Below, piece after piece: positions 14,440 to 30,969 of a stretch of 60,090 nt of DNA; within the stretch, counting starts at the first letter, position 1; every line of letters begins with the position of its first letter. The notes beneath the pieces are model-generated. The model made no database searches and was not told the origin of the DNA. It was given only the letters and a program-made list of their open reading frames with translations. The translations under genes and the position numbers were made by a program. This DNA comes from a virus (taxonomy: Duplodnaviria; Caudoviricetes): the IMG/VR virus record IMGVR_UViG_3300002053_000022, positions 1-60,090 of that record. One strand, given 5' to 3'.

Positions 14440-14919
14440 ATGGACAAGTGTAAAGGATGTATGTGTCATTATCACGATGAAGAACTTGGATGGTATTGTG
14501 TAGCTCCTGTGTGTATAAAAGATTATAGCTACGATCCAGAAACAAGAATATATACTCTCATTGATAAATCTGAGTGGAAAACAGAAAATCCAAAATTATT
14601 TGAATATGATTCCAAAAATAAAATAGTGGATGTATTTGTTAGAAAGGATGATAGTTGTCCATTTCCATTTCATAGTGAGAATTGGTATCATCAAGGATTT
14701 TATCTTGGTGATTTTTTAAATAGATTAAGAGAACTCCTTAAGAATTTTAAAGGAGAAGATGGTAAATGCCCTGTTTGCACACATTCTACCGAAAAGGTTT
14801 ATTGGTATGATTCCGATTTTTGGGGGAATGGCGAGGCTACTAAGACTGGTGAATGTGTGCTTTGCGGGGCAAAAATATATAAAGTATTTAAATTTGTAGG
14901 AATTGAGTTGCTTGAATAA
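14440..14919 (+). CDS. Cys-rich hypothetical protein
   Basis: CKGC...C...C and CPVC...CVLCG. Confidence 0.55.
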   Translation: MDKCKGCMCHYHDEELGWYCVAPVCIKDYSYDPETRIYTLIDKSEWKTENPKLFEYDSKNKIVDVFVRKDDSCPFPFHSENWYHQGFYLGDFLNRLRELLKNFKGEDGKCPVCTHSTEKVYWYDSDFWGNGEATKTGECVLCGAKIYKVFKFVGIELLE

Positions 14920-15422
14920 TGTGGAATGTTGGAGATCAAAACACTCCAAGAATTTACCTCTCAAGAGGAGTTAACGCAAGAGATGATTGGGAAACTCCAA
15001 AATATTTTTTTGATTTATTAAATGAAATATTTGGATTTACTCTTGATGCTGCGGCTTCTCACAGTAACCACAAATGTGACAAATATTATACAATCCAAGA
15101 AGATGGAATATTACAAGACTGGGAAGGAGAAACAGCGTTTTGCAATCCTCCTTTTAACGAAATCTCTATGTGGGTTAAGAAGTGTTATTCAGAAGGACAG
15201 AAAAAAGACACAACAGTTGTTATGATTTGTCCAGTAAGAAGTGACACTGATTATTGGCACGAATATATTATGAAAGCTCACGAGGTTTGGTTTGTAAATA
15301 AAAGAGTTAACTTTCTTAGAGATGGCAAAGAGGTTAAAGGTTCTACATTCCCATTATGTGTAATAGTTTTTAAAAGAACATTAAATAAAACACCGAAAAT
15401 TAGGAGCTTTGATCATAAATGA
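14919..15422 (+). CDS. Phage-type DNA N6-adenine methyltransferase
   Basis: DDWETP, LDAAAS, FCNPPF, PVRSDT..W. Confidence 0.9.
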   Translation: MWNVGDQNTPRIYLSRGVNARDDWETPKYFFDLLNEIFGFTLDAAASHSNHKCDKYYTIQEDGILQDWEGETAFCNPPFNEISMWVKKCYSEGQKKDTTVVMICPVRSDTDYWHEYIMKAHEVWFVNKRVNFLRDGKEVKGSTFPLCVIVFKRTLNKTPKIRSFDHK

Positions 15423-15661
15423 GTGAAGAAGAATTAATACATTCTATTGCCGACCATTTAGCGAATCCCCCAAACTATGAACAGAAAATAATGGAAGTTT
15501 GTGGGTGTGGTTGTTCAGAACAGTGTTCATGTTATCAAAAAATGATAGAACTTGTTGATATATATGGTTGGACAATTAAAATGAAAAAAACAAAATCAAC
15601 CACAATAGATGTTAAAGATATTAAATTTACAATTACAGCAGAATGGTATGAATATGTATGA
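15419..15661 (+). CDS. Hypothetical protein
   Basis: Coupled ORF with a Cys cluster. Confidence 0.5.
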   Translation: MSEEELIHSIADHLANPPNYEQKIMEVCGCGCSEQCSCYQKMIELVDIYGWTIKMKKTKSTTIDVKDIKFTITAEWYEYV

Positions 15662-15852
15662 AAAAATATAGAATAACTTTTAAGAAAATGCCTCATTCTG
15701 AATTTATACCAACTGATGATCCATTAACTAATGGACATTTAAGAGAAGTAGCAATAGAATGTTTGAGAAATCATTTACATTATTTAGCTGATTTACCAGA
15801 AAAAGAATTTTCAAAACTTACAACTGAGTATGAGTATGATGACGGGTTATAA
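15658..15852 (+). CDS. Hypothetical protein
   Basis: ATGA-coupled ORF. Confidence 0.5.
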   Translation: MKKYRITFKKMPHSEFIPTDDPLTNGHLREVAIECLRNHLHYLADLPEKEFSKLTTEYEYDDGL

Positions 15853-16570
15853 AGAAAATCCAAAAACAAAAGGTAGTGGTATTGTTTGTGCGATTCCACA
15901 AACGGGTCGTTGTCCAAACGAATGCGAAGATTGCTTTTTCCAATCTGGAAGAAGTTATTTAGAACCATTAGACGAAAATTTACCTAATATGCCAATGAAT
16001 CTTATGGATAGAATTGTTCGCGTAAACGATGGGAACGATAGTAATGTAGATAGAGAAGAAGTATTAAGAGCTACTCAGCACTATATATTCAAATTTTATA
16101 ATACAGCTATACCAAATAATTTAGAAGGATTTGAAGAGCCAGTAGTTTTAACAATTAATCCTGGCAAAATGACTAATAAAGGATTTTATACGCTGTATGA
16201 TATACCAAAGAATTTAATGTTTGTAAGAATTAGAACTAATATGTGGAATTTGCATTTGGTTTTATCAGCAGTAAAGCATTATACGGAGAGAGAAGTTCCA
16301 GTAGTTCTAACATTTATGGCATATTTTGACACAGCCGATAACATACCAGAATCTTGTAGGCAATATTATACTTTTAGAAAGAGAACAACAAATTCTTACT
16401 GGGCTATTACAACTGAAGGATGGGAGATTATTATGAACTATTTTAAATATAATAAATGGGTTCATAGTTGTGGTAAAATTGAGGGAGAAAAAGGAGACAC
16501 TCATTGTAGATTTTGTGGAAACTGTCTAAGAGAATATTATGCGACATTGGAGAGAATGAAATGCGAATAG
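15830..16570 (+). CDS. Radical-SAM-like Fe-S protein
   Basis: CPNECEDC fits CxxxCxxC; extra C-terminal CRFCGNC. Confidence 0.6.
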   Translation: MSMMTGYKENPKTKGSGIVCAIPQTGRCPNECEDCFFQSGRSYLEPLDENLPNMPMNLMDRIVRVNDGNDSNVDREEVLRATQHYIFKFYNTAIPNNLEGFEEPVVLTINPGKMTNKGFYTLYDIPKNLMFVRIRTNMWNLHLVLSAVKHYTEREVPVVLTFMAYFDTADNIPESCRQYYTFRKRTTNSYWAITTEGWEIIMNYFKYNKWVHSCGKIEGEKGDTHCRFCGNCLREYYATLERMKCE

Positions 16571-17424
16571 GACAATCATTAATAGGTTGGTATGGAGGAA
16601 AGTTTAATTTATTAAAACATTTCTTGCCGTTTCCAGCTCACACAACATTTATAGAAGTATTTGGAGGATCTGGAGTTGTTTTATTCAACAAAATTCCTTC
16701 GGAAATAGAAGTCTATAATGATATTAATTCCAGATTAATTAACATGTGGCAAGCCATCAAGATAGACAGAAGAAAGTTTATAGATTTTGCCGCTAATGAA
16801 TATGGAATAGATAGCAGAGCGCTATTTGATTACGCTAAGAACAATATTGCTGATGATAAGATAGAAGACGCAGCAAGATTTTATTATATAAATCGCCACT
16901 CGTTTTCTCAAATGAATGAATCTTATCACGGAATTTCATTTAATGGAAAAGAACATTGGCATACTCCTTATCTCAATAAATTAAAACAAATAGAAAAATA
17001 TTACGAAAGAATTAAATTTGTTCAACTTGAAAACCAAGATTTTAGAACTATTATGAAGAGATGTGATAGAGATGGAGTATTGCTTTTTGTAGATCCTCCT
17101 TATTTTAAAGGTGGAGAAGTTTATGAGCTTATGGTTGGAATGGATAAAGAAGAAAATTCTTGGTCTTTAAAAGAATTTGAAGATTTAAAAGAACTATTAT
17201 TAGGTTATAAGAAAGCCAAATTTGTTTTAACTGTTGATAACAAGGAATTCTTTCATAGCGAAGATTGGTTTTATCAAGAGGTTGAAAGAATTAATGCAGC
17301 ATCCTTTTGTGTAGGTAAAGAGAAATCAAAGGATATTGAATATGTCATAAGGAATTTTGATCCAGCAACCACTCCAACAATGGAAATTTACGAGAATAAA
17401 GTTACAGATGATATGGAATTATGA
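16561..17424 (+). CDS. Dam-like (D12 class) DNA adenine methyltransferase
   Basis: WYGGK, EVFGGSG, YNDIN, DPPY; probable start at ATG 16561. Confidence 0.92.
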   Translation: MRIGQSLIGWYGGKFNLLKHFLPFPAHTTFIEVFGGSGVVLFNKIPSEIEVYNDINSRLINMWQAIKIDRRKFIDFAANEYGIDSRALFDYAKNNIADDKIEDAARFYYINRHSFSQMNESYHGISFNGKEHWHTPYLNKLKQIEKYYERIKFVQLENQDFRTIMKRCDRDGVLLFVDPPYFKGGEVYELMVGMDKEENSWSLKEFEDLKELLLGYKKAKFVLTVDNKEFFHSEDWFYQEVERINAASFCVGKEKSKDIEYVIRNFDPATTPTMEIYENKVTDDMEL

Positions 17425-17849
17425 GTGTTAAGAAAAAAATATATTTTGCTCATCCGTTCTCAAAAATGGGAACGAAGAGAGAAGAAATGATTATAAAAAT
17501 TCTGGAAGAAAGAGGGTTTGAAGTCATAGATCCTTTTATAGGAGAAGATGAACTGTGCAGAAAATATGGAGTTTCTTATTACTATCAAAAACCGATGTTA
17601 CAATTTGCTAATGAAATAGTATATAGAGATTTCAAAATGGTAGATGATTGCGACGCATTGTTTGCTTGGCTTCCAAAGACATCTGTTTGTTTAGGAACGG
17701 TCAGAGAACTCGATAGAGCATTAAGAAAAGGCAAAGAAACAATTGTCATTCATCATAAGCCAAATCCTTTCTTAATAGATGTAGATATTTTGTATTTAAA
17801 CTATAACGATTTTAAATGGGATGTACCCTATAAGTGGAAAGAGAAATGA
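17421..17849 (+). CDS. Nucleoside 2-deoxyribosyltransferase-like / nucleotide N-hydrolase
   Basis: IYFAHPF, D..MV..CD and GTVREL. Confidence 0.75.
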   Translation: MSVKKKIYFAHPFSKMGTKREEMIIKILEERGFEVIDPFIGEDELCRKYGVSYYYQKPMLQFANEIVYRDFKMVDDCDALFAWLPKTSVCLGTVRELDRALRKGKETIVIHHKPNPFLIDVDILYLNYNDFKWDVPYKWKEK

Positions 17850-18295
17850 ATATTATTACAGAATTTGTTAAAGAATTTGGAGAAGCAGTAGAAGAAACAA
17901 GTGATAAAATTATTGTGGCTTCCTCTACTAGAATCGAGGCATTAGTCGATAATGATAAATTCTTTAATGAATATGATAATAATCTTCATAATTATCTAAA
18001 AAACCTTCCTAAGAAAGAGCAAGGAAAATTTCAAACAGTTAAGATAAATTCTTCCTATTTTGATATAGACAGAATTAAAAAAATACTTGAAATGTTCGTT
18101 GGTTCAAATTCATTTGAAGGCAAAGTTTATAGAGTAAATAAACATAATTTTTTATATATAAAAATTGATTCTTCATACGGAATTATTATAGCCGAAAAGA
18201 AGAAAAAATATGTGGGAGATTCTCCTCACGAAATTATTTATAATTGGCACGAGATATTTTTAGAACAAACATTTAGTAGTGATATGATATTATGA
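17834..18295 (+). CDS. Hypothetical protein
   Basis: Coupled ORF; ends SDMIL. Confidence 0.55.
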   Translation: MEREMNIITEFVKEFGEAVEETSDKIIVASSTRIEALVDNDKFFNEYDNNLHNYLKNLPKKEQGKFQTVKINSSYFDIDRIKKILEMFVGSNSFEGKVYRVNKHNFLYIKIDSSYGIIIAEKKKKYVGDSPHEIIYNWHEIFLEQTFSSDMIL

Positions 18296-19065
18296 AAATA
18301 CCAAAAGAATTACAACAAAGAGCTGGAAGAGGTAAAAAACAAAAACCGCCATTAGCAAAACAATTTAAAGATTATGTTCCAGTACAATGGAGATTTCAAT
18401 GGGGATTTGTTAAAAACAAGTATGGAACTCTTTTAGTTTATGAGCCGAAAAAATTCATACCTAAATATGCTGATTTGTCTTATCAACATAACATAGTTAA
18501 GTTATTAGAAAATGGAAAATATGAATGTTTTGTTGATGTTGGAGCAGCATTTGGTTTGTTTCCTTTGATAGCTTCACATTATTGTAAAAAGATAATAGCT
18601 TATGAAGCATTACCATTTAGATTTGGATTACTACTCCAAAATATGGCTCATCTTCCAAAAGTTGAATGTAGATACGCTTATGTTTCACAAAAAGAAGATA
18701 CTCCTAAGATGGGAGATCCTTTTCAAATGGTTAAAAGAACGGATGAAGAAAGTTATAATATTCCTCTCGTCACATTAGACGAAGAATTAAATTTCTTAAT
18801 TCCAATAAAAGCTCCTCCAGAAGATTGTGGATGTAAATTAAAGTTACCAAAACCTATGAGAACCTTAATTAAAATTGATGTTGAAGGAAACGAATTAAAA
18901 GTTTTGAATGGTGCGACAGAATTATTAAAACAACCACATATTCATTGGACAATAGATGTTCATCCATACCAAAATGTTGAAATAAAAGATGTAAAGAAAT
19001 ATTTCATTGGAAGAGCAATGGAAGCAGCAGGAAATAATAATGTAACATTTAAGAGGTTTAAATAA
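18292..19065 (+). CDS. FkbM-family SAM-dependent methyltransferase
   Basis: FVDVGAAFG, YEA, VTLD and IKIDVEGNE. Confidence 0.88.
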   Translation: MKIPKELQQRAGRGKKQKPPLAKQFKDYVPVQWRFQWGFVKNKYGTLLVYEPKKFIPKYADLSYQHNIVKLLENGKYECFVDVGAAFGLFPLIASHYCKKIIAYEALPFRFGLLLQNMAHLPKVECRYAYVSQKEDTPKMGDPFQMVKRTDEESYNIPLVTLDEELNFLIPIKAPPEDCGCKLKLPKPMRTLIKIDVEGNELKVLNGATELLKQPHIHWTIDVHPYQNVEIKDVKKYFIGRAMEAAGNNNVTFKRFK

Positions 19066-19229
19066 TGGGATTTCCAACAAAAGAAAGCCAAGCAAGATAC
19101 AAAATATATAAGGCGGCATGGGATTTGTATTTAATGGCTACAAAGGTTGATAAAGATGCCGCAAAAAAATTAAGAGAAGAAATAGATTCTGCTTTAAAAG
19201 TATTAGAAGAGAGTGATCCATTTGGTTAA
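19065..19229 (+). CDS. Small helical protein (54 aa, not in ORF track)
   Basis: MGFPTKESQ... fills the gap; TAATG overlap. Confidence 0.5.
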   Translation: MGFPTKESQARYKIYKAAWDLYLMATKVDKDAAKKLREEIDSALKVLEESDPFG

Positions 19230-19977
19230 TATAATTATAACAAGCGAAATGAGAGTAGGTAGTAGATGGTTACACTATCTGCTATCAGAATTACTCCACA
19301 TGAAAGTAAGTCCAGAATTAGATGTATCAACATTACCAAAATCTGCTTCTATTGTTAAATTTAGATTTAAAGATAACACAATTGTAAAATTTCACCATGC
19401 ACTACCATCAGATATTTTTAGTGCTATACCTACAAAAGATTGTGTTGTTATAGCTGTTGTTAGAAATCCAAGAGATAGAATAGTATCTTGGACATTTCAT
19501 CAAAGATTTAAGCCACAAGGACAAGGATGGTTACCATTAAAGAACGCAAAGACAGACGAAGAAGCTGTTAAAACTGCATTTTATTCACATTTTAGAACTG
19601 ATGCTGATAAAAATCAAGAGATATTAATGCAACCTAAATTCAGTACTAAATTTGTAGAAGGTAAAAAAGCTGTGGGTAGTTATATTTGGACAAGTTATCA
19701 CTGGCTTAAAAACAATTTATTTAGGGAAATTAAAACGATTGTTAGATACTTAGGATTAAACATAAAAGATAGTGAAATAAAAAGGGTTTGTTTAAAACAT
19801 AGCTTCCAAAGAAGAGCAGGAAGAGCACCAGGTGAAGAAGTTAGAACAAACGAATGGTTTAGAAAAGGAGAAGAAGGCGATTGGGAAAATTGGTTTGATG
19901 AAAAAATGGTTGCAGAAAGCGCAGATAGCGATAAAAAATACTGGGATGCGATAAAAAGTGAGGAGGGAAACACTTAA
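19213..19977 (+). CDS. PAPS-dependent sulfotransferase
   Basis: 5'-PSB-like MRVGSRWL, 3'-PB VRNPRDRIVS and C-terminal FRKGEEGDW. Confidence 0.88.
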   Translation: MIHLVNIIITSEMRVGSRWLHYLLSELLHMKVSPELDVSTLPKSASIVKFRFKDNTIVKFHHALPSDIFSAIPTKDCVVIAVVRNPRDRIVSWTFHQRFKPQGQGWLPLKNAKTDEEAVKTAFYSHFRTDADKNQEILMQPKFSTKFVEGKKAVGSYIWTSYHWLKNNLFREIKTIVRYLGLNIKDSEIKRVCLKHSFQRRAGRAPGEEVRTNEWFRKGEEGDWENWFDEKMVAESADSDKKYWDAIKSEEGNT

Positions 19978-20158
19978 AAAGACTATGGTGTATAGAGTAA
20001 CATCATTTGTTGTAGCAATGTTTATTACATTTTTATTTACTGGTAGTCTTGAAATATCAATAGGATTAACAATCGTATTGGAAACAACAAAATTTATACA
20101 ATATTATTTATTTGAAAAGAAGTGGAACAAATGGAAGAAGTCAAAGGAGAATATATAA
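19958..20158 (+). CDS. DUF2061-like small membrane protein
   Basis: K..VYR...YYLFEK.W pattern. Confidence 0.7.
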   Translation: MRRETLKKTMVYRVTSFVVAMFITFLFTGSLEISIGLTIVLETTKFIQYYLFEKKWNKWKKSKENI

Positions 20159-21291
20159 GTAAGGATTTTCCATATATATCTAAAAGTAAAATAAAAACAC
20201 ATCTTTATTATTGTCCTTATCTGAGTTGGACTAAATATTTCCTTAAAGAAGAGAAAGGAGTAATGGGTATTAGATGTGATGTTGGTACTGATACACATTT
20301 AATATTTTCTGAATTTTGGAAATATGTTGATGGAGATTATATATTTGATAATTTAAAAATAAACCCAGCAATAGAATTAGATAATAATCCTGTAACTCAT
20401 TATTTTTATAGTATTTGTATGACACTTACTCCAGAATACGACAGAGAAGTACATGTCTTACAAAGAATATTCTGGAAATTTTCTCTATTACACGCAGCAA
20501 GATTCTTATATCTACATTCTCTTTTTAATGGAAACAAGTTTAAAGTTTGGGAATATTTCAAACCATTAGAAATAGAAGAATTTTATATTGATGATCTTTT
20601 TGAAATATTTGGAACTCTTGATATTGTTTTTAGAGAAATAGATGAACAACTTAACGAAGGAATATTTGTTGCAGATTATAAAACTGGTAATATTCCAGCT
20701 TCTGTTAAAAGAGGGCCTAAAAATATATCAGATGATACTTCTGTTAAATTACCTCCTAAGTTTATGTTTGAAATACATTTCTATGGTTTATGTTTTCTAT
20801 TAAAAAGAGGATGGCGCTTTACAGACGAAAGAATTAAAAGATTTGTTATTGATGATGAATATAAGGACGAACACGGATGGCATAAGTTTGGTTTAGGAAA
20901 AACAAAAGAAGAACAACAAGACATTGATGACGCTAAAAGAAAATATCTTACAACAATAGATCATAAATTAAAAAGAAAAGATATAAAAACAAACAAACTT
21001 GTAACATTTAAACACGGAGGAATCACACTTGGAATAATATTTCTTAGTGGAGATCCAAACATAGATGTTCCAGTCGTTGCTAAAAAGAAATTTACTTATT
21101 CTTCATTCAAAACAGTGTTGTATAAAATAAATGCAATGAGACAAATTTATTTCAATAGAGATAATGATGAATATTATTTAATAAGAGAAATGAAGACAAG
21201 ACCAGAATATAATGAATATAGATGTGTTCATTGTTCTCGAAATGAAAGATGTTTAAAAGAAATAGAAGAGGCGTTTGCTCGTGGCGAATAG
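20122..21291 (+). CDS. Cas4/AddB-like PD-(D/E)XK nuclease with Fe-S cysteines
   Basis: SKS...CP, GT..H, GTLD, DYKTG and C-terminal CxxC...C. Confidence 0.8.
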   Translation: MEQMEEVKGEYISKDFPYISKSKIKTHLYYCPYLSWTKYFLKEEKGVMGIRCDVGTDTHLIFSEFWKYVDGDYIFDNLKINPAIELDNNPVTHYFYSICMTLTPEYDREVHVLQRIFWKFSLLHAARFLYLHSLFNGNKFKVWEYFKPLEIEEFYIDDLFEIFGTLDIVFREIDEQLNEGIFVADYKTGNIPASVKRGPKNISDDTSVKLPPKFMFEIHFYGLCFLLKRGWRFTDERIKRFVIDDEYKDEHGWHKFGLGKTKEEQQDIDDAKRKYLTTIDHKLKRKDIKTNKLVTFKHGGITLGIIFLSGDPNIDVPVVAKKKFTYSSFKTVLYKINAMRQIYFNRDNDEYYLIREMKTRPEYNEYRCVHCSRNERCLKEIEEAFARGE

Positions 21292-21427
21292 ATGTCCAAA
21301 ATGTAAAAAGAAAAACCCAAAATTCATACAATGTTTTGCAAGAGAAAATGGTATAATAAGATTTGGTTTTCAATGCAAAAAATGTGGTCACAAGTTTGAA
21401 ACGACAAGTTACGAGAGGGAGTTATAG
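21281..21427 (+). CDS. TFIIS-C-like zinc ribbon (48 aa, not in ORF track)
   Basis: RCPKC...FQCKKCGHKF; GTG start with GAGG RBS. Confidence 0.6.
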   Translation: MANRCPKCKKKNPKFIQCFARENGIIRFGFQCKKCGHKFETTSYEREL

Positions 21428-21428
21428 T

Positions 21429-22469
21429 GTGTTCATCGAAACAGGAGTCTCACAACGAGTTCCTTTTAGAAGGATGTTTGACAGTGAGCGACTTGCAATT
21501 CAAGATTTCAACAAATACAAACATTACTCGAATGTTTATCACAGTGTTTATTGGTTCAGGGAAAGAGAAGAAAAATTTGATACACATGGAAATTTCATTA
21601 GATGGGGGCCTGACTATAATACAGCAGTTATTACAAGAATTAATCTTGACCTCGATTCCTTCAAAACGATTAGGCTTAATGGGTCGACTATTGAAGTCTA
21701 TACTGACGAGGGAGTAGAATCAATATTGAGGTTTGCTGATTGGTGTGATAAACATAATTATATGAGACAATATATTTTTAGTGGAGGAGGATTCTATGGT
21801 CAAGTTAAAGCCAGTGGACATCCTTTAAAGCTAAGAGATGGAATGCTACATCTTGGAGCAGAACTAGGACTAGAAATCGATCCAGCGACTGTTGGAGATA
21901 CATCAAGAATGATGAGAGTTCTTAATTCTTTTAACTTTGGAGAACATAGAAAATGTTTTTGTATTCCACTCTCAGAAGACGAAATTCACCTCTCTTATAA
22001 CAAAATTCATTCTCTTGCTCAATCTCCAAGATTTAGACAAAGATACATCTATGGAGAAGAAACATTTAGTTTAGATAGATTTAAAATAGATGAATATAAA
22101 ATCGAAAAGAAACAATTGTTTATAAGTATAAAACAAAATCCTAATGCAGAAAAAATATTAGAAAAATATGGTTGGCAAACAAATGATTTTTGTGACACCA
22201 TTAAACATATTATAAGTAAAGAGTATGTAGGTCATTATTTAAGATATGAACTACTTAAATATTTAAGGAGTGTAGTTTTTATGGAAATAGAAGACGCTGT
22301 TAATCTAATAGCCGCATTATTAAAAGAAGAAGGAATACACTCTTTAGCAGAAGGACAAGCAAGATATGTTTATACATATAACAGAGTTTTTAATCCTAAA
22401 AAATTAAAAGCTATGGGAATTTGTCCTCCTAATTGCCATAAATGTATGAGGTTGAGAAATATATTATGA
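21429..22469 (+). CDS. Archaeo-eukaryotic primase, catalytic domain fused to PriL-like C-domain
   Basis: LDLD, FSGGGFY, RMMRV and C-terminal GH..R...C..C; probable start at GTG 21429. Confidence 0.8.
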   Translation: MFIETGVSQRVPFRRMFDSERLAIQDFNKYKHYSNVYHSVYWFREREEKFDTHGNFIRWGPDYNTAVITRINLDLDSFKTIRLNGSTIEVYTDEGVESILRFADWCDKHNYMRQYIFSGGGFYGQVKASGHPLKLRDGMLHLGAELGLEIDPATVGDTSRMMRVLNSFNFGEHRKCFCIPLSEDEIHLSYNKIHSLAQSPRFRQRYIYGEETFSLDRFKIDEYKIEKKQLFISIKQNPNAEKILEKYGWQTNDFCDTIKHIISKEYVGHYLRYELLKYLRSVVFMEIEDAVNLIAALLKEEGIHSLAEGQARYVYTYNRVFNPKKLKAMGICPPNCHKCMRLRNIL

Positions 22470-22634
22470 GTATAGATTTTGAAAAAATGTGGGAAAAACT
22501 ACAAAAACTTGCGTCTTTAATAAGAGAAAAGGATGGTTGGAGTTGTGATCTATCCAGAATAGAAGACGATGAAAAAAATGGAATATTTCTCAATATTTAC
22601 CAAAAAAAGGAACAAAAATTAAAAGGCGATTATT

Positions 22635-23219
22635 TTGCTTGAAGGAAAAATTATATGGTTTTGGGGTTTGTCTGGAAGTGGAAAAACTACTTTAGCCGAC
22701 AAACTCTGTAATAAATTGATGTATAAATTAAGAACTGCAGAACAAGAAGGACAAATTGGTGTAGTTTCTGACATCCAAAGATTAGATGGAGATATTGTAA
22801 GACAATCTCTCACAAAAGATTTAGGCTTCTCAATAGAAGACAGATTTGAACATATAAGAAGAGTGGCATTTGTGGCTGATTTGCTTTCAAGACACGAGGT
22901 TTTGGTTATTTGTTCTTTTATAACTCCTCTTAAAGCAATGAGAATGTTTCTTAGAGAATATCTAGGAGACAGATTAATTCTTATTGAGTGTAGATGTCCT
23001 CTCGAAGAGTGTATGAGAAGAGACCCTAAAAAATTATACAGAGCTGCGCTTTATGGTAAAATAAATAATATGACTGGATTAACTTCTCCTTTTGAAGCAG
23101 GCCCAACAAATTATCCAGCAGGCACTACTGGAGAAACAATTGTTAGTACATATTATTGGAACGAAGAACAGTGTTTAGAACAAATAATAAATTATTTAAA
23201 AGAGAAGAAATATTTATGA
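22635..23219 (+). CDS. cysC: Adenylyl-sulfate (APS) kinase
   Basis: GLSGSGKTT, LDGDIVR, LGFS.EDR, RDPKKLY and TG..SPFE. Confidence 0.93.
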   Translation: MLEGKIIWFWGLSGSGKTTLADKLCNKLMYKLRTAEQEGQIGVVSDIQRLDGDIVRQSLTKDLGFSIEDRFEHIRRVAFVADLLSRHEVLVICSFITPLKAMRMFLREYLGDRLILIECRCPLEECMRRDPKKLYRAALYGKINNMTGLTSPFEAGPTNYPAGTTGETIVSTYYWNEEQCLEQIINYLKEKKYL

Positions 23220-23620
23220 GCGAAAAATATTATGCTTTGAAAATTGAAAATTCAGATCACGCCTTGCTTTTTCATTTTACATTTACTCCAGAAGAAGCAA
23301 AAAATACTAAAGTAAGTATCGGAACAATAGAAAGCGTGTTGCCTCATGGTCTTTTAGGAGAGGAACACCACATAGAATGTAAAACAATATCAATAATTGG
23401 TATGCACAGGCAGGCGTATAAAGATGATCAAGCTTTGTAATCTTATAAATGATATAAGAGAAGGCATAGACGATATTCAACTTATGCCAGATTCAGAATT
23501 ACACTATGAATATGTAAGAGACAAATTAAATCAATTAGAAAAAACTTTAGTTCAACAAGGAGAAATTTTAAAAGAAATAGCAAAATTTCTAACTTGGGAT
23601 GATATGGAAAAGTGGTATGA

Positions 23621-24400
23621 ATGATTGTTATAGATAGCAGAGAGCCTTCAGAAGTTTTTGAGGCTTTTGAAGAAAAAGGAGTGCCTTATATTAAGGCGGC
23701 ACTAAACTTCTACTCTTGCAAAGAATGTAAGAAAGTGGATTTTGTAAAATTTGAAGTTTGCCCAGAATGTGGAAGTAAAGATATAATGGTAGAAGACGCT
23801 GGAGACTTCACAAACACAACAAGATCATTCTTAGTTGAAAGAAAGACAGAAGGAGATTTCATTGGTTCAATGTTAGATAAATCCCTTCAACAACAAGCGG
23901 CAAGAATGGCTAAATATTTTGGTGGATGGAAGTTTGTCTTCTTAGAAGGATTTATTACAGTTATGGTTGATAATCCTTATAATCAAAAAATTAGACCTTG
24001 GATAAAATCAATGCGTGTTTATCTTAGACAATTCGATATTTGTATGTGGCAAATGGATGACATATATATGTTGATTGATGAACTTGTCAGATTAGATAAG
24101 AATGCTGGTGAAGATCCAAAAGTTTATGATAAAGTAGATGATAAATATTCTGGATGGTCAGATAGCAAGAAAATTGTTTGTAAATTAGTTGATGTTTCTG
24201 ATAAAAAGGCAGATGTTTTATTAGAAGAGTTTAAAACTCCTTGGGATATATTTAATGCAATTATGAGCTCAAAAATTCTCTATACCAGAACTGGTAATCC
24301 TAAAGGAGTTTCTGGGCCGTTAGCAAAAGTAAAAGGATTTGGGCATAAATTTGTAACAAAAAATCAAGACATGTTGTTAAATAAAGATGGAAATAAGTGA
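23621..24400 (+). CDS. ERCC4/XPF-family nuclease with zinc-ribbon insertion
   Basis: IDSRE, GDF, VERKT..DF, LEG; HhH-like C-terminus. Confidence 0.85.
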   Translation: MIVIDSREPSEVFEAFEEKGVPYIKAALNFYSCKECKKVDFVKFEVCPECGSKDIMVEDAGDFTNTTRSFLVERKTEGDFIGSMLDKSLQQQAARMAKYFGGWKFVFLEGFITVMVDNPYNQKIRPWIKSMRVYLRQFDICMWQMDDIYMLIDELVRLDKNAGEDPKVYDKVDDKYSGWSDSKKIVCKLVDVSDKKADVLLEEFKTPWDIFNAIMSSKILYTRTGNPKGVSGPLAKVKGFGHKFVTKNQDMLLNKDGNK

Positions 24401-26195
24401 TGTTAGAAATTATATTGCACAGGAATGCCTTCAGTTTGTCAGATATGGCAAAGGTAATTTAATTTTTAACACATTTACTGGTTCTGGAAAAACAACAACA
24501 ATTTTAAAAACACTTTATGAAAGTGAAGATGGATTCACATGGATGTATTTTGCGCCTTACCACAAAGTTATAGAAGAAAACATAGAGCTTTCGAGCGTTA
24601 TAGACTTTTATAATTTAGTACATTTACAAGCGAGAAAACATGTTTGTTTATCAAAAGAATTTAGAACATTAGCAGAAAATAAAATAAATATAGCTCCATT
24701 TTGTGAAAATTTTTGTACTAAGAGAGATGATGGTTGTCCTTATTATGAAAACTTAAGAATATTGAGAGAGATGCCAACCTGTTTTGCTGGAGTTCATTCA
24801 CATATACCAACTCTTTTACAAACTCTTTTGTATGAAAAATGGTCTAATAAATGTTTATTTAATTATTATGATGTTATTATAATTGATGAATTTCCATTAA
24901 GCACTATTTATAATCAAATTTCGATAACAAAAAGAGATATAGATTATTGTAGAGATGTGTTAGAATTAACACAAATTCAATCTAATGAATCAGCTGTTTT
25001 AATGATGATGTTAGACCAGCTCTCATTGGCTACCGATGCTATTGAAATAAACTATGAAAAAATATATCACATTGTAGAGGGTATAAGAGGATTAAACTTC
25101 GATAAATTTAAAGAACAATATGATATTGAAATATTAAATCTTATAAGAAAAAAGAGAATTTTATCACCTCCACAAGAAATATTACATTATTTATCGGAGA
25201 TACACAAAGTAAAACCTTCTGTTGAAAAATTGAGATGGATGATATATAAAACAAAGAACAATCAATGGCATAGAGGAATGATACATTTAACAATATCAAA
25301 TCTCCCATCATTTCTTAGTTTGCCGATAAAAGTTATTGCTCTTGATGGAACAGCAGATTTAGAAACTTGGAAAAATGTGTTAGGAGATGATTGCACATCT
25401 ATAAGTTTTGATATTGAATATAAAAATACATATCAATTAATTGGAGCAAGAAACCCTGTAAGTACTATAATAAAAAATGGTAAATTGTCTGGCTCTGGAA
25501 AGAGGTTATTTGATTTATTAGCAACAATTTGTGAAAACAAAGAAGGAAAAGTTCTTATTTGTTGTACTAAACGAGTTCAAACATTATTAGCAAAAGAGTT
25601 TAAAAAGAGATACATAGATAATTATGTATTTGCTACATATTTTAATTTAAGATCCAGAAATTCCTACTATGAAGAATGTGATACTTGTGTAGTGTTTCAC
25701 GAACCAAATATTCCACCATTTCAAGTTGAAATAATTAGAGAATTATTGCGTTGGCCTGAGGATGTTGTTATTAAAGTTCACAGAGAAGATGAAATGAAAC
25801 AAGGTATAGGAAGAGAAAGACAAAATATTCCTATAACACCAAGAGGAAGAAAAAGAGGTTTGAGAGAAATTTACATATTCTCATCTACTGGTTATAACAG
25901 ACTAGTGCCAGAAGCAAAATATATGATTAGCAATGATATGTATGCTTATATAAAAGGTGGAAAGAAAAGATTATTTTTTGAGAAACTTAGAGAAATTCTC
26001 GGAAAATATTGTCCCGCATCTAAGACAAAATTAAAAACATTATTAGGATTGCCAACAACAAAATTTAATCATATTTTAAGAATTTTAGAAGAAGAAGGAG
26101 TTGTGAAAGTTTCATGGGGAAAGGTGGAATATTTAGAAGAATTAAGAGAAGAAGACGAAGAAAAATATTTGATAAGGATTGGAAGAGCTTGGTAG
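24387..26195 (+). CDS. Superfamily 2 helicase-like protein (Fe-S Cys cluster, C-terminal wHTH)
   Basis: TGSGKTT, C...C...C...CPYY, IIIDE and QGIGR.R. Confidence 0.75.
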   Translation: MEISDVRNYIAQECLQFVRYGKGNLIFNTFTGSGKTTTILKTLYESEDGFTWMYFAPYHKVIEENIELSSVIDFYNLVHLQARKHVCLSKEFRTLAENKINIAPFCENFCTKRDDGCPYYENLRILREMPTCFAGVHSHIPTLLQTLLYEKWSNKCLFNYYDVIIIDEFPLSTIYNQISITKRDIDYCRDVLELTQIQSNESAVLMMMLDQLSLATDAIEINYEKIYHIVEGIRGLNFDKFKEQYDIEILNLIRKKRILSPPQEILHYLSEIHKVKPSVEKLRWMIYKTKNNQWHRGMIHLTISNLPSFLSLPIKVIALDGTADLETWKNVLGDDCTSISFDIEYKNTYQLIGARNPVSTIIKNGKLSGSGKRLFDLLATICENKEGKVLICCTKRVQTLLAKEFKKRYIDNYVFATYFNLRSRNSYYEECDTCVVFHEPNIPPFQVEIIRELLRWPEDVVIKVHREDEMKQGIGRERQNIPITPRGRKRGLREIYIFSSTGYNRLVPEAKYMISNDMYAYIKGGKKRLFFEKLREILGKYCPASKTKLKTLLGLPTTKFNHILRILEEEGVVKVSWGKVEYLEELREEDEEKYLIRIGRAW

Positions 26196-26436
26196 GAATG
26201 CCTTTAAATGAACAAACTCTTCAATATGCAAAGGAATTAGCAAAAAGCAAGTTTCAAATACCAGTATCTACAATATATACAATGGGAGTAGATTATGGAA
26301 AAAGAGAAATTGCTGCTATTACTATTGAATTTCCGTGGGCAACGCAAACTGAGTGCATAATAATAGAAATACCAAAACAATCTCCTAAACCAGAAATTCC
26401 AGACATGCTACACAACATAAGAGAATTGTTTGAACT

Positions 26437-26820
26437 ATGGTCGAGATAAGCGAAGAAGAATACAGAGAATACATGTATTTAAAAAGGAAAGAAGCGGAGA
26501 GAATCAGAGCAATAGAAGAGACTTTGAAGAAGGGAATTCCTCAATTTAAAAAATGGAGAGAAGATCTTAACAGCGTAAGAGGTTATGCTGCTGTTTTTGT
26601 TAAGATTTTAAATGAAGAATGGGAGAAGAGAGGACAACCAGACTCGTTTGTCTTAGACAGACTTAGAGTTGTGTTTCAATATCTTCCAGATTTCTTATTA
26701 ACTAAAAAAAAAGGAAAAATATATATAAAAAAATACTTCAGAGAATGTCTTAGACAATATGGATGGTCAGTTAGAATTGATCATAAATATGGTTTATTTG
26801 AAGTTTTTAAAAACATTTAA
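26437..26820 (+). CDS. Hypothetical protein
   Basis: Long coupled ORF. Confidence 0.55.
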   Translation: MVEISEEEYREYMYLKRKEAERIRAIEETLKKGIPQFKKWREDLNSVRGYAAVFVKILNEEWEKRGQPDSFVLDRLRVVFQYLPDFLLTKKKGKIYIKKYFRECLRQYGWSVRIDHKYGLFEVFKNI

Positions 26821-26824
26821 CAAG

Positions 26825-26832
26825 TTTATAAA
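26825..26832 (+). promoter_or_regulatory. Archaeal TATA box upstream of the glycosyltransferase pair
   Basis: TTTATAAA in a rare intergenic gap, followed by an AGTGAT RBS. Confidence 0.55.
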
Positions 26833-26874
26833 TTATTAAAACACATTATAATATAGAAAAATGAGTGATATTAA

Positions 26875-28104
26875 ATGCTGATAGATCACGAACGACAAAG
26901 GATAGTATGTTTATCACAAGATCCAAAAACAATCTTTTCTTATGGATTACAAGTAAATGAACTAATAAAAGGGCTTACTGATTATCAGTTCCATATAATT
27001 AGTTCTCAATATGCTTATGGAAGACCTTATGAAAGTGATGGTTATATCACTTGGGCTTTTGAAGGAGAACAACAAAGAACAACGACAACTCTAAAAAAGA
27101 TTGTTGATTATACTAATCCTGTGTGTGTTTTTTCTATGGGAGACATACACCACCATCCAAATGTGAGTATGGGAAAACCTCTACAAGTTCCATGGGTTTC
27201 ATGGTTTCCTTGGGATAACCACGATATGCCAGGATTGTTAAGAGCAAAACAACATATAGAAGAGCCAGATATAAAAGTTACAATGAGTGATTTTGCTTTT
27301 GATTTAATGAAACAATGTGGAATAGAGGTTGATGAAGTAATATACAATATTGTTAATACTGATACTTTTTATCCTATGTCGAGAGAAGAAATGGATAGAG
27401 AGACATTGGTGAAAATGAATCCAGCAATAGCTGATAAAAAAATATTATTGTTTGTTGGAAGACCATCTTGGAGAAAAAATCTTGAATTTTTAATGGGCGC
27501 ATTTAAAGAAATTTGTCGACAAAGAGATGATGTTCTGCTTTATTTACATGTTGATTTTGATGATGAAGGAGCAGAAGAAAGACCTAATATGGATAAACTA
27601 ACACATGCCTTACAATTAAATGATAAAATAATCAACACAGAGAAAAATAAATGGACTACTGGAATAGGAGCTAATTATCTTAATAGGCTTTATAATCTGT
27701 GTGATTTATATGTTACTCCTCATGGAGGAGAAGGGTTTGGGTTACCTATTTGCGAAGCTATGGCAACGGGAATTCCATTCGTAGCTACAAATTGTACTAC
27801 AATGCCAGAATTCGCAGGTGACGAAGAGAGAGGATTGTTAGCAAATGTTAGATTAAATCATCTCGAAAGAGGAATATATAGACCTTGGGTTGATATAAAA
27901 GATTTTACTGATAAGATTCTTTATTTGCTCGACAATGACGACGAACGAAATAAAATGGGAAGAGCAGGAATGAAATGGGTTCACGAAAATTGTTCACACA
28001 AAGTTATAGTTCCTCAATGGAAAAATCTATTTGAAAAATTAAATGTTCCTTTGTGTAATGTAGATAGAAATTCTATGATAATTGATTGGAGGGATAATTT
28101 ATGA
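26875..28104 (+). CDS. Glycosyltransferase family 4 (GT-B)
   Basis: FVGR..RKN and EGFGLPICEAMATG. Confidence 0.92.
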   Translation: MLIDHERQRIVCLSQDPKTIFSYGLQVNELIKGLTDYQFHIISSQYAYGRPYESDGYITWAFEGEQQRTTTTLKKIVDYTNPVCVFSMGDIHHHPNVSMGKPLQVPWVSWFPWDNHDMPGLLRAKQHIEEPDIKVTMSDFAFDLMKQCGIEVDEVIYNIVNTDTFYPMSREEMDRETLVKMNPAIADKKILLFVGRPSWRKNLEFLMGAFKEICRQRDDVLLYLHVDFDDEGAEERPNMDKLTHALQLNDKIINTEKNKWTTGIGANYLNRLYNLCDLYVTPHGGEGFGLPICEAMATGIPFVATNCTTMPEFAGDEERGLLANVRLNHLERGIYRPWVDIKDFTDKILYLLDNDDERNKMGRAGMKWVHENCSHKVIVPQWKNLFEKLNVPLCNVDRNSMIIDWRDNL

Positions 28105-29183
28105 TACCAATAAATTGGATTAATAACTTTGGCCCAAATGGATATGGAATTTGTGGTAGAAGATATGTAGAAATACTACAAAAATTAGGTTATCCTCTTC
28201 AAATAACAGCTATTCCTTATATAGAACCAAAAGATCCTTTGTTTCCACTTTCTCAAGTAAAGCTTGAAAATCCATTAAATGTTTTTCACGCAATTCCAAC
28301 ACATCCACAAGACTGCTTTTATACTGTTACAGAAGTAAAAAGACCACCAGATTATATGGCTTACGCTCTTCAACAAGCAGATTTTATAATGACACAATCT
28401 GAATTTTGTAAAGATTCCTTTTCAAGAGTTGTTGATAGGAATAAGGTGCATGTTGTTAATTTCCCTTTCCCACCATATTTCAGTCCAATTGGCCCACAAT
28501 ATCCATTAACAATTGATGCTGAACACAAGTTCAAATTCTTTACTGTTGCGAGAGTGGATGTAAGAAAAAATCTGAGTCTTCTAATGAAAGCATTTGCAGA
28601 AGAATTTGGTGATAATAAAGATGTCTGTTTGATTATGAAAATGGGAAGTGACAGATATTGTATTCCGAAAATATTCTATGATTTAGATTTACCTAAGAAT
28701 ATATATTGGATGAGAAGTTTTGTTAGAGATACTTCAACACTTTATAGAAGCATGGATTCATATATTACAACAGACAACGGAGAGGGGTGGGGAGCACCAA
28801 CAACAGAAGCAATGTTATGTGGATTGCCAACAATAGCTCCAAGACACAGCGGACATTTAGATTATATGAACGATAATAATTCTTATTTATGTGAAGTAGG
28901 AGATTGGGAATTTATTGGATACGATAATGAACATAAAGACAGATTGCCAAACTATTATCCAGAATTACTTTGTCCTCAATTAGAATGGAAAGTTCCTAAA
29001 ATTGAGAGTGTAAAGAAACAAATGGCTAAGGTTTATGAAACATTTAAAGATGTTCCAAAAAGGGAGAGAATAAATCATCCAACAATAAAAAACTCAATTG
29101 ATGTTAAGAAAATAGTTAGTGAAAAATATGTAGCACAACAACTAGTGGAGGCTTTAAACTGGTATGAAAACGAGTATAGATAA
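28101..29183 (+). CDS. Glycosyltransferase family 4 (GT-B)
   Basis: GYG, RKNL and EGWGAPTTEAM.CG. Confidence 0.9.
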   Translation: MIPINWINNFGPNGYGICGRRYVEILQKLGYPLQITAIPYIEPKDPLFPLSQVKLENPLNVFHAIPTHPQDCFYTVTEVKRPPDYMAYALQQADFIMTQSEFCKDSFSRVVDRNKVHVVNFPFPPYFSPIGPQYPLTIDAEHKFKFFTVARVDVRKNLSLLMKAFAEEFGDNKDVCLIMKMGSDRYCIPKIFYDLDLPKNIYWMRSFVRDTSTLYRSMDSYITTDNGEGWGAPTTEAMLCGLPTIAPRHSGHLDYMNDNNSYLCEVGDWEFIGYDNEHKDRLPNYYPELLCPQLEWKVPKIESVKKQMAKVYETFKDVPKRERINHPTIKNSIDVKKIVSEKYVAQQLVEALNWYENEYR

Positions 29184-29454
29184 AGCTAATATATGGGTAG
29201 AAATAGAAAAAACCATATTTCATATCCAAAAGATTGAAAAGCTTAGAAAAAATTTGGTTGAAGAAATGACTGTTGGTCAAATCTATCTTCCAAAAGAAGA
29301 GTATGAAGAAGCAGAAACATATTTTATTGAACTAGTTAATATATTTGGTCGTAAAATAGAACACATGTTTAAATATTTACATAAAGTATTAGGTGAATAT
29401 CTTGCCGAGAAAAAAGATAGAACTGACAAGAGAACAGGTATTGAAGTCTGTTGA
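29164..29454 (+). CDS. Hypothetical protein
   Basis: Overlapping helical ORF. Confidence 0.5.
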   Translation: MKTSIDKANIWVEIEKTIFHIQKIEKLRKNLVEEMTVGQIYLPKEEYEEAETYFIELVNIFGRKIEHMFKYLHKVLGEYLAEKKDRTDKRTGIEVC

Positions 29455-30403
29455 ATACTGTAATAGTTGGCAAGAGGTTGCTGACGAATTAGGAATAAGT
29501 ACAGATATTCTAAGAAGAGAGAGGAGAAAACTTAATTTGCCAAAAGAAATTTCTGATATTAAAATACAATTTTATAAATATATCCCAGAAGATTATCTTG
29601 ATGACATTCTTCCTTTGGAAGACAAAGGAGATCTTCCATTAAATTATATCACAATAGAAGTTCCAGAAGGTACTAAAGAAGTTATGATAGTTCCTTTTGG
29701 GGATATACATTGGGGAAACGAAGATTGTGATAAAAGAATGTTAAGGATAGTACTTGACTGGCTTTACAAAAACAAACATGTTTATATAATTTGTATGGGA
29801 GACATGGTTGAATCAAGCATAATTGGAAGTCCAGGATTGTTCGATCAAGAAAAATTCTTGGATAGTCAAGTATATGATATAATTAAGATGTTAAAACCTT
29901 TGGCAGATGAAGGAAGAATAATTGGTATGCATATAGGTAATCACGAAAGAAGGACTGTAAAAAATACAAGCTTCAACTTAACAAGATTAATGTGTGAAGT
30001 GTTAGATGTTAAGTATTTAGGAGAAGGTATTCTTCATTTAATAGAAGTTACAGATGGTAATAATAGTGAAGAATATACAATGTATACTACGCATGGTGCA
30101 AGCGGTGCGTTATATCCTTATACAAAAATGAGTGCTTGTATGAAATTGGATAGGATAGCTAATGCAGAAGTATATTGCATGGGGCATGTTCACTCACTAG
30201 GACACCAAAAAATGGACACTTGTGAGGTAGATTTTGAAAATAAAAAGACAGTAAAAAAGCCGAGACATTATGTTTTGACTGGAAGCTATCTTAAATATTG
30301 GGGTTCTTATGCCCAAGCAAAATCATATATCCCATCTGGAGAATCAGGCAGTCCGAAAATCAAACTTCATATTGACACGCATAGAATTAGCGTATCACTA
30401 TGA
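29393..30403 (+). CDS. Calcineurin-like metallophosphoesterase with N-terminal HTH
   Basis: GDIH, GD, GNHE, HG and GHVH. Confidence 0.88.
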   Translation: MNILPRKKIELTREQVLKSVEYCNSWQEVADELGISTDILRRERRKLNLPKEISDIKIQFYKYIPEDYLDDILPLEDKGDLPLNYITIEVPEGTKEVMIVPFGDIHWGNEDCDKRMLRIVLDWLYKNKHVYIICMGDMVESSIIGSPGLFDQEKFLDSQVYDIIKMLKPLADEGRIIGMHIGNHERRTVKNTSFNLTRLMCEVLDVKYLGEGILHLIEVTDGNNSEEYTMYTTHGASGALYPYTKMSACMKLDRIANAEVYCMGHVHSLGHQKMDTCEVDFENKKTVKKPRHYVLTGSYLKYWGSYAQAKSYIPSGESGSPKIKLHIDTHRISVSL

Positions 30404-30462
30404 TTTATTCTTTTTTTTATTAATGAATTCTCCTTTAAAAATGTTCAAAACATTTTTATGGT

Positions 30463-30726
30463 ATGATTCACAATTACAAAAAATTACAAGGAGAAGAAAT
30501 CCTTCTATTCAAACAATTTCTTGATGAATATAAGGAATACGACAGAGTTGATCTTTTGATCGAACTCTTTTTACAGAGAACTGGCACATCATCTTTAGAC
30601 TTTAGAAACAGAGATGTAAAAATAAAAAATGAGAAAAGAGATGAAATAGTAATTGAAGCCATCCCAGACAGTTTAAAATACTGTGATGGAGGAAAATGTA
30701 CTATTGATATTTTCAAGACATGCTAA
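30463..30726 (+). CDS. Hypothetical protein
   Basis: Last + strand ORF. Confidence 0.45.
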   Translation: MIHNYKKLQGEEILLFKQFLDEYKEYDRVDLLIELFLQRTGTSSLDFRNRDVKIKNEKRDEIVIEAIPDSLKYCDGGKCTIDIFKTC

Positions 30727-30969
30727 CACCTACATATAAGGTGTTATATAAAATTTTTTAGAATTTTATTTGATCCGATATTGGATCACGATCTCGATAC
30801 GAGAAGAAGCTCCCAAATAATATAAAAAAAAGAGATGGGAGTTAAAAAATAAACTTTTTCTTTCAACCTATATCGTATCGTAAAAAGATCATATAAAAAA
30901 TTATCACGAAACTATATTTACTTTCTTATTCTGTGATAGTTTGGTTTAAATTAAAAAAGATGAATTTTT
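30727..30969. other. Convergent intergenic region with hairpins and poly-T/poly-A tracts
   Basis: ACACCT-N7-AGGTGT, GATCCGATATTGGATC and CTCG-ATA-CGAG; the two gene blocks meet here. Confidence 0.5.

Follow-up and report, generated by a model that had tools for sequence, protein, structure and literature searches.

Sulfotransferase, APS kinase and glycosyltransferase genes in a family of tailed viruses, with a possible role in virion glycan decoration

Virus-encoded glycosylation of particles is known, for example from the capsid glycans of chloroviruses and the O-glycans of mycobacteriophage virions, and glycosylation of phage DNA exists as well. The window, i.e. the whole stretch of DNA analysed here, is the linear IMG/VR virus record IMGVR_UViG_3300002053_000022 (Duplodnaviria, Caudoviricetes) with 60,090 bases, 32% G+C and a completeness estimate of 61%. 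Among its replication genes it possesses an adenosine 5'-phosphosulfate (APS) kinase, a sulfotransferase, an FkbM-family methyltransferase and two GT4 glycosyltransferases, the parts of a sulfo-glyco-(methyl) system.

In the decoration of rhizobial Nod factors, NodPQ supplies 3'-phosphoadenosine 5'-phosphosulfate (PAPS), NoeE sulfates and NoeI methylates the fucosyl residue of one and the same glycan (PMC4881576, accessible part). GT4 genes near the tail genes of tailed viruses of marine archaea (Poseidoniales) are read as tail-protein glycosylation in the accessible part of PMC11706807. An N-glycan with sulphated glucuronic acid is found on VP4, the spike protein of HRPV-1, an archaeal virus; host synthesis is indicated there, because a legionaminic-acid pathway is not encoded by the virus and the S-layer of the host bears this glycan, too (PMC6137143, accessible part). 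The APS kinase gene cysC is widespread as a family in phage genomes and is read as an auxiliary metabolic gene (AMG) in the accessible part of PMC10914622, where the word "sulfotransferase" occurs 0 times. A prokaryotic virus with its own sulfate-donor supply and sulfotransferases for sulfated glycans was not found in the full-text literature within reach, which leaves out most subscription journals; what the searches yielded were AMG surveys or papers on other subjects.

A conserved set of sulfation and glycosylation genes

The plus strand of the window, from position 1 to about 30.7 kb, forms a replication block, the minus strand from 31.7 to 58.9 kb a structural block with Baseplate_J, a tail-collar protein, the portal and a T4-type large terminase. 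Relatives were found in two ways. An APS-kinase search led to G001, and aligned sulfotransferase homologues, used as the query, gave 30 pattern matches, of which 13 are confirmed viral loci. These loci make up two sets, of which set A is the virus family of the window itself, with G001 (99.5 kb, 100% complete), G002 (99.0 kb, terminal repeats, 100% complete), G003 (65.8 kb) and G004 (75.9 kb, 77% complete); L008, a shorter record of this set, is indistinguishable from G004 by match statistics, gene for gene. Set B (L012 to L019) is a second lineage. Counts out of five refer to the window (G000) and G001 to G004, two of the five being complete (~99 kb).

All four relatives have the genes for a nucleoside 2-deoxyribosyltransferase (NDT)-like protein, h153, the sulfotransferase, a nuclease, a primase, the APS kinase (where present), ERCC4, a helicase, h127, GT4a and GT4b in the same order, with 30-70% amino acid identity. 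This order is not due to chance, since it recurs in all four other family records. An earlier note on this DNA, made from its letters alone, had grouped seven of the window's genes (NDT-like, FkbM, sulfotransferase, DUF2061, APS kinase and both GT4) into a candidate modification system. All seven are open frames on the plus strand, begin where the note had placed them and score above the curated Pfam cut-off. Their co-occurrence in relatives, proposed there as a check, holds for the sulfotransferase (5/5), the GT4 pair (5/5, with GT4b of G002 split across the record ends) and the APS kinase (4/5, in a slot between primase and ERCC4), but not for FkbM (1/5, window only) and in part for DUF2061 (3/5). 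The APS kinase, the sulfotransferase, the two GT4 enzymes and lineage-specific methyltransferases form a real, conserved sulfo-glyco-(methyl) system.

The CysC-like APS kinase (22635-23219, plus strand) matches PF01583 with an E-value of 7.7e-41 (140.1 bits, cut-off 21.1) over positions 2-143 of the 152 in the profile. It keeps the motifs GLSGSGKTT (P-loop), LDGD and FSIEDR, and 29 columns are invariant among 5 viral kinases; we take GxxGxGK[ST]T, LDGD and FSxEDR to be the P-loop and the APS/Mg-binding motifs. By its motifs the enzyme looks active and would make PAPS from host APS. Neither ATP sulfurylase (PF01747) nor PAPS reductase (PF01507) is present in any of the five family records, and the virus's own sulfotransferase is the sole visible user of PAPS. 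On these absences the virus would take APS from its host, and the PAPS made from it would serve sulfation and not assimilation. The pairing of kinase and sulfotransferase as supply and use of PAPS, as claimed in the earlier note, is thus borne out by the family matches, the intact motifs and the missing PAPS reductase. The note had also seen neither ATP sulfurylase nor a hydroxymethylase in the window, which is correct (for the latter as regards the thymidylate-synthase type) and extends to all five records.

According to published surveys of phage cysC (PMC10914622, accessible part), the kinase could instead be an AMG that boosts the assimilatory sulfate reduction of the host and has no connection with the other genes. 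The family, lacking PAPS reductase throughout, always encodes a PAPS-using sulfotransferase, and the same tendency appears in a survey of 45 other viral records with an APS kinase (15-110 kb, giant-virus bins excluded, from the best 80 of 181 relatives, some being fragments or near-duplicates). PF00685 matches occur in 10/45 (5 above cut-off) and PF13469 matches in 15/45 (11 above cut-off), so that 12/45 possess a sulfotransferase of either family above the Pfam cut-off. The distance between sulfotransferase and kinase is at most 1 kb in 5/45 and at most 10 kb in 10/45, but PAPS reductase is found in only 2/45. Such an AMG role is the least probable of the readings considered here. As the window's cysC is paired with a sulfotransferase and has no cysH beside it, its likely role is that of sulfate donor for sulfation, and the proportion of 12/45 to 2/45 suggests that part of the viral cysC genes listed as AMGs may serve sulfation, too.

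The sulfotransferase (19213-19977, plus strand) is the core of the system and belongs to Sulfotransfer_1 (PF00685, E 1.3e-15, 58 bits, cut-off 22). Its AF2 model (pLDDT 89.8) retrieves SULT7A1, SULT2A1 and SULT1B1 with bound PAP or PAPS in Foldseek (probability 1.00, TM 0.56-0.64, ~20% identity). The stretches R14-V-G-S-R-W, H61, RNPRDR..S92 and R217-K-G..D223 are invariant in 15/15 aligned homologues, with an Arg in R14-VGSRW where Lys is usual. RNPRD and RKGxxGDW align with the matching stretches of SULT7A1, the remaining motif assignments being made by eye; the definitions of the 5'-phosphosulfate loop, the 3'-phosphate motif, the catalytic His and RKGxxGDW are those that we presume for SULT enzymes. 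Motifs and model together make it look like an active, PAPS-dependent enzyme of the cytosolic SULT type.

Among 38 sulfotransferases in a maximum-likelihood tree, the family copies form one clade (support 100/99), which argues for an old possession of the family and not a recent pick-up. No match exists among GenBank phages. A motif scan of 185,579 species genomes for a cellular counterpart gave 16 pattern matches and 0 confirmed ones, in a scan that needs near-exact motifs and misses distant relatives. The ESM Atlas returned generic bacterial sulfotransferase clusters only, and the 30 metagenomic homologues of the clade bear no informative names, one being a "hypothetical protein".

GT4a (26875-28104, plus strand) matches PF00534 (E 6.8e-24, 84.7 bits) and, over its full length, phrog_2170 (1.4e-43). 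GT4b (28101-29183, plus strand), the start of which overlaps the stop of GT4a, matches the same two families (PF00534, E 5.9e-13, 49.1 bits; phrog_2170, 2.9e-23). The E-x7-E motif reads EGFGLPICE in GT4a, where it is kept in 5/5 orthologues, and EGWGAPTTE in GT4b, where it is kept in 3/3 aligned orthologues. A division of the pair into an active enzyme and an inactive chaperone partner was considered and rejected, as both keep this motif. Directly upstream of GT4a lies h127 (26437-26820, plus strand), a conserved and possibly accessory gene without a Pfam match, the orthologue of which occupies the same place in 4/4 relatives.

The FkbM-family methyltransferase, dependent on S-adenosylmethionine (SAM), is encoded at 18292-19065 on the plus strand (PF05050, E 4.7e-8, 33.8 bits, cut-off 22.7; phrog_8156, 1.7e-13). 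It is an accessory, lineage-specific insertion beside the sulfotransferase. At the corresponding slot between h153 and the sulfotransferase, G002 possesses a GT2 glycosyltransferase and two other methyltransferases. Hydrophobic segments are found in none of the APS kinase, the sulfotransferase, GT4a, GT4b and FkbM.

Product and acceptor of the sulfation branch

The records of set B form one lineage with terminase, portal and head genes in common. They have only FkbM, sulfotransferase, APS kinase and GT4 in common with the window, and the two lineages are unrelated. FkbM homologues with 27-38% identity adjoin the sulfotransferase in L012, L014, L015 and L018. In the first three the two genes overlap and end a cluster of a cytidylyltransferase-like/APS-kinase fusion, an NTP_transferase, a GT2 and an MptE/Maf-like protein, after which follow the large terminase and the portal, with a phrog_2170 GT4 behind the head genes. 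Two glycosyltransferases enclose the sulfotransferase in L016 and L017, again after the head genes. Two proteins of this lineage are peculiar in themselves. The fusion protein of L015 (5085-5813; also in L014) has 242 aa, with a cytidylyltransferase-like HxGH domain (5-61) and an APS-kinase domain (103-194). The GT4 of L016 (10770-13238, 822 aa) contains an intein with LAGLIDADG and intein-splicing matches, which is unusual within a glycosyltransferase.

Among cultured phages, the nearest GT4 homologues are those of Tetrasphaera phage TJE1 and Synechococcus phage S-CBS4 (tblastn E 6e-11 and 3e-7), located beside terminase or portal. The TJE1 cluster (orf9-orf14) consists of a nucleotidyl transferase, a nucleotide-sugar epimerase, a methyltransferase and a glycosyltransferase, that of S-CBS4 (gp014-gp016) of a glycosyltransferase, a galactosyl transferase and a methyltransferase. 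Because the other lineage and the cultured phages carry these genes beside terminase, portal and head genes, their location in the replication block characterises the window's family, not the system.

Within set A, further sulfation and glycosylation genes accompany a tail-fibre-like gene. In the window this gene (31741-33681, minus strand) has no family match and is labelled by its position beside Baseplate_J and the tail-collar protein (40063-40848); it is convergent with the GT4 pair. Its orthologues are located at 6939-9269 in G001, 93798-96797 in G002, 29199-30905 in G003 and 18565-19761 in G004. Directly downstream, on the same strand, G003 possesses an island with Methyltransf_24, a radical SAM enzyme, a GT2, an NDP-sugar epimerase/4,6-dehydratase (E 1.5e-51) and Sulfotransfer_4, and orthologues of all six genes of this island are found in G004 by BLAST. 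At the same junction G001 has a third GT4, a methyltransferase, a radical SAM enzyme with SPASM domain, Sulfotransfer_4 and a sugar nucleotidyltransferase (NTP_transferase, a family present in 1/5 records). Islands of this kind next to the tail-fibre gene thus occur in 3/4 relatives. In the baseplate/fibre block of G001, two more sulfotransferases and a radical SAM enzyme stand where the window has its tail-collar protein.

Some features of these tail regions are worth recording in their own right. In or beside the tail module of G001 (14220-21141, L003; 942-6928), the sulfotransferases number at least four and belong to three Pfam families; a CxxCxxCC protein and two radical SAM enzymes, of which one has a SPASM domain, are found there as well. 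In the window, two small genes (30970-31266 and 31239-31739, both on the minus strand) are located directly downstream of the tail-fibre gene, where relatives carry their islands. Their products have 2 and 3 hydrophobic segments, lack homologues in all four relatives and may be holin-like lysis or membrane proteins.

A sulfated sugar as product, one of the proposals of the earlier note, is supported by this context, with GT2, methyltransferase, NDP-sugar and nucleotidyltransferase genes nearby and the same combination of genes in the second lineage. Support from context also exists for the methylation that the note had added; FkbM itself is present in one of the five records, and in this virus the sugar is probably O-methylated. 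The SULT-type enzyme and FkbM might, alternatively, modify a metabolite, a signalling nucleotide or a peptide and have nothing to do with the GT4 pair 7 kb off. The closest solved relatives of the sulfotransferase are indeed cytosolic SULTs for small molecules, FkbM enzymes also methylate polyketides, and relatives carry radical SAM enzymes with SPASM domain, which are often peptide modifiers. Sulfation of such small molecules or peptides is nevertheless rather unlikely, as glycosyltransferases flank the sulfotransferase in both lineages (GT2 in G002; a glycosyltransferase and GT4 in L016 and L017; GT2, MptE and NTP_transferase in L015).

Decoration of a virion-protein glycan, with the tail fibre or the capsid as the likeliest target and with a sulfation branch of the virus's own, is favoured here at a probability of roughly 0.45. 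Virion proteins are preferred because of the islands behind the tail-fibre genes, the head-module placement elsewhere and the soluble enzymes. The viral APS kinase would phosphorylate host APS to PAPS, as family membership and motifs indicate, and the viral SULT-type sulfotransferase would, by its motifs and fold, use that PAPS. The two soluble, motif-intact GT4 enzymes could add sugars from nucleotide-sugars of the host, although motifs speak to their activity and donor and acceptor are inferred. The gene neighbourhood in two virus lineages suggests that FkbM would O-methylate and the sulfotransferase sulfate the product. Judged by gene position, the acceptor may be a glycan of cytoplasmic origin that is linked to protein and not to DNA, with the tail-fibre or capsid proteins of the virus itself as the most likely carriers. 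The position in the replication block would have to do with the timing of expression (early or middle) in this family and would not indicate a DNA substrate. The 68 ORFs of G001 that lie beyond its blocks of homology to the window match 30 Pfam families, and the best 25 of these include no lipid carrier, flippase or oligosaccharyltransferase; soluble enzymes without visible lipid-carrier machinery fit a direct cytoplasmic glycosylation.

Several observations weigh against decoration of virion proteins. The GT4 pair and the tail-fibre gene of the window are on opposite strands with 2.6 kb between them, the sulfotransferase and APS kinase there lie among replication genes, and the APS kinase is absent from its slot in G004 (77% complete). 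The sulfotransferase is nearer to small-molecule cytosolic SULTs than to known carbohydrate sulfotransferases. Ser/Thr-rich tracts, which carry O-glycans in some phages, are absent from the structural proteins of the window, with a maximum of 11 Ser/Thr per 30 residues. The argument for the acceptor is drawn from neighbourhood and family context, and position is weak evidence, as tail-fibre junctions are general hot spots of accessory genes.

Glycans of the host envelope are a serious rival and rank next after virion proteins. The enzymes would act on surface glycans of the host (S-layer, LPS or capsule precursors), for example to block superinfection or to alter the adsorption of progeny. Lipid-linked or envelope glycans are common substrates of GT4 enzymes. 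The genes lie among early/middle (replication) genes in all five family records, and the accessory set of methyl-, sulfo- and glycosyltransferases varies strongly among relatives, as surface-glycan loci do. Bacteria, furthermore, make sulfated surface glycans with a dedicated, nodPQ-dependent PAPS supply, according to titles in the reference list of PMC4881576. Integrase or lysogeny genes are, however, not seen among the families scanned, an initiating phosphoglycosyltransferase, a flippase, a polymerase and an oligosaccharyltransferase are missing from the G001 inventory (best 25 of 30 families), and the genes are inside head/packaging modules in the second lineage and in the cultured-phage homologues. 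Envelope remodelling is clearly less probable than decoration of virion proteins. The earlier note had offered virion or host-surface glycans as the alternative to its own first choice; from the gene positions in relatives and the second lineage, this alternative is the better reading.

That first choice was DNA, with the glycosyltransferases acting on a base of the viral DNA and the sugar then being methylated and sulfated. It agrees with the location of the genes in the replication block and with the presence, in the same genome, of an NDT-fold enzyme and a T4-gp1-type dNMP kinase (DNMK family; 2005-2619, plus strand; PF21448, E 3.4e-21). Kinases of this family also occur in phages with canonical DNA, and both enzymes are compatible with ordinary nucleotide metabolism. 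Hydroxymethylases of the thymidylate-synthase family (PF00303), TET/JBP (PF12851) and TGT/DpdA (PF01702) are found in 0/5 family records, two of them complete, and the inventory of G001 shows no base-modifying family among its best 25 of 30. The glycosyltransferases are ordinary GT4 with phrog_2170 relatives in head modules, and companions such as the NDP-sugar dehydratase, GT2 and the MptE/Maf-like protein are typical of glycan synthesis. The Dam-type methylase in the replication block (plus strand) is an ordinary DNA modification, and h153, next to the NDT gene, looks clamp-like, a hint at replication and not at modification. DNA decoration would have to proceed by a base-activation route unrelated to the hydroxymethylase, TET and DpdA routes, and both this route and DNA hypermodification as such are very improbable. 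Should it be true, it would be a new class of DNA hypermodification.

If decoration of glycans is true, sulfation is a viral tool that shapes surface charge and receptor interactions. It would make use of a sulfotransferase clade for which no cellular counterpart was found in the motif scan and which is common to two unrelated virus lineages, and it would suggest that part of the viral cysC counted as sulfur-assimilation AMGs serves sulfation.

Neighbouring genes and further features of the family

The NDT-like gene (17421-17849, plus strand) has the nucleoside 2-deoxyribosyltransferase/nucleotide N-glycosidase fold (PF05014, E 6.6e-8; phrog_355), with weak PDB sequence matches only (E 0.07), and stands upstream of h153 in 4/4 relatives. 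h153 (17834-18295, plus strand; AF2 model with pLDDT 84.7) has no Pfam, PHROG or significant PDB sequence match, and Foldseek gives nothing at E<=0.001. Processivity clamps (PCNA, beta-clamp, gp45 and others) occupy all of the top 35 rows in VIA-align, with a best Z of 6.3, which is below the caution line of Z 8. The model hints at a resemblance to one sliding-clamp domain and hence at a replication accessory outside the system; at 153 aa, a clamp-like domain standing by itself would be peculiar. DUF2061 (19958-20158, plus strand; PF09834, E 7e-12) is a small membrane protein with one hydrophobic segment, located at three different genome positions in the records that possess it. Fused forms were not found, which is weak evidence, and the abstracts listed for papers that mention the family do not state its role. 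The NDT-like gene probably belongs to nucleotide metabolism and DUF2061 is probably a mere neighbour, so that the inclusion of both in the system by the earlier note is probably not correct.

The Cas4-like nuclease (20122-21291, plus strand) shows a D...D-Y-K core and 1+3 cysteines, the AEP-like primase (21363-22469, plus strand) NLDLD, SGGGF and RVLNSFN and a C-terminal Cys cluster. These motifs were assigned by eye according to what we take to be their definitions, and neither protein has a Pfam or PDB sequence match. The ERCC4 nuclease (23621-24400, plus strand) is above cut-off (E 1.9e-7); the SF2 helicase (24387-26195, plus strand) has only sub-threshold DEAD_2/ResIII matches. The interleaving with replication genes described in the earlier note is hence firm for ERCC4; it is backed by sub-threshold matches for the helicase, and for nuclease and primase the motifs seen by eye agree with it.

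Further members of the replication block, all on the plus strand, are an RFC-like AAA+ ATPase and a family-B DNA polymerase (PolB) in two genes, the exonuclease gene at 9370-10674 and the polymerase gene at 12310-13998. The two halves are ~1.6 kb apart in the window, with small ORFs between them, and the same split with a shorter gap is found in relatives (G001 78941-80218 and 80819-82495). The polymerase part reaches 875 aa in G003 and L011, compared with ~560 elsewhere, which suggests an insertion, e.g. an intein. Other length differences concern the helicase of L011 (15500-18214; 904 aa vs 602 in its orthologue) and the phosphoesterase of G003 (21166-23277; 703 aa vs ~335, in two separated BLAST segments). 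The part of G001 that is absent from the window contains a MoxR/CbbQ-like AAA+ protein (AAA_5, CbbQ_C), an RNase H, DUF6899 and a TFIIB-type zinc ribbon.

The window has no tRNA genes, and its promoter/terminator scan does not differ from shuffles. Terminase and polymerase have only distant relatives among GenBank phages (21-29% identity), and the putative major capsid protein (50863-51990), which lacks a family match and is named for its position, size and conservation, has no match there. Relatives of the APS kinase in the 185,579 species genomes have up to 46% identity and are scattered across many phyla. The host is possibly archaeal, a hint that comes only from the AEP-like primase, the RFC-like ATPase, PolB and ERCC4. 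For Magrovirales, tailed viruses of marine group II archaea, the gene list of PMC5434244 comprises PolB, RFC, AEP primase, MCM and often a chaperonin. Split PolB, RFC-like ATPase and AEP-like primase are seen in the window; MCM and chaperonin are absent among the Pfam families of G001 (best 25 of 30).

Comparison with known systems

The clusters of TJE1 and S-CBS4 resemble the window in the GT4 subfamily (phrog_2170), in methyltransferases and further glycosyltransferases and, in TJE1, in nucleotide-sugar enzymes. They differ in that the stretches considered have no annotated sulfotransferase or APS kinase and in their location beside terminase or portal instead of the replication block; these clusters are known from annotation.

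T4-type DNA glycosylation with glucosyl-hydroxymethylcytosine is like the window in its combination of viral glycosyltransferases, a dNMP kinase and the virus's own replisome. The window's family, however, lacks hydroxymethylase, TET and DpdA (0/5), and its glycosyltransferases are GT4 by Pfam, in a comparison that did not include searches for the T4 alpha- and beta-glucosyltransferase families.

The nearest functional analogue is the rhizobial Nod-factor decoration, in which a PAPS supply of its own likewise goes with enzymes for sugar sulfation and sugar O-methylation, the likeness being one of function; NoeI presumably belongs to the FkbM family. The Nod system differs in being bacterial, in its product, a secreted lipo-chitooligosaccharide, and in an ATP sulfurylase within NodPQ, an enzyme that the virus lacks.

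Systems of virion glycosylation are similar in their soluble, virus-encoded glycosyltransferases, accompanied in chloroviruses by sugar methyltransferases, that act on structural proteins. The tail-protein reading of the GT4 genes of Poseidoniales viruses (PMC11706807, accessible part) supports a virion-protein acceptor here. A sulfation with virus-encoded PAPS supply is not known from these systems, and a count of the terms "sulfate", "cysC" and "adenylyl" in the accessible part of PMC11706807 gives 0. HRPV-1 represents the case of a virus particle with a sulfated glycan, and here the difference lies in the source of the enzymes: host synthesis is indicated for HRPV-1, whereas the window virus itself encodes sulfation enzymes.

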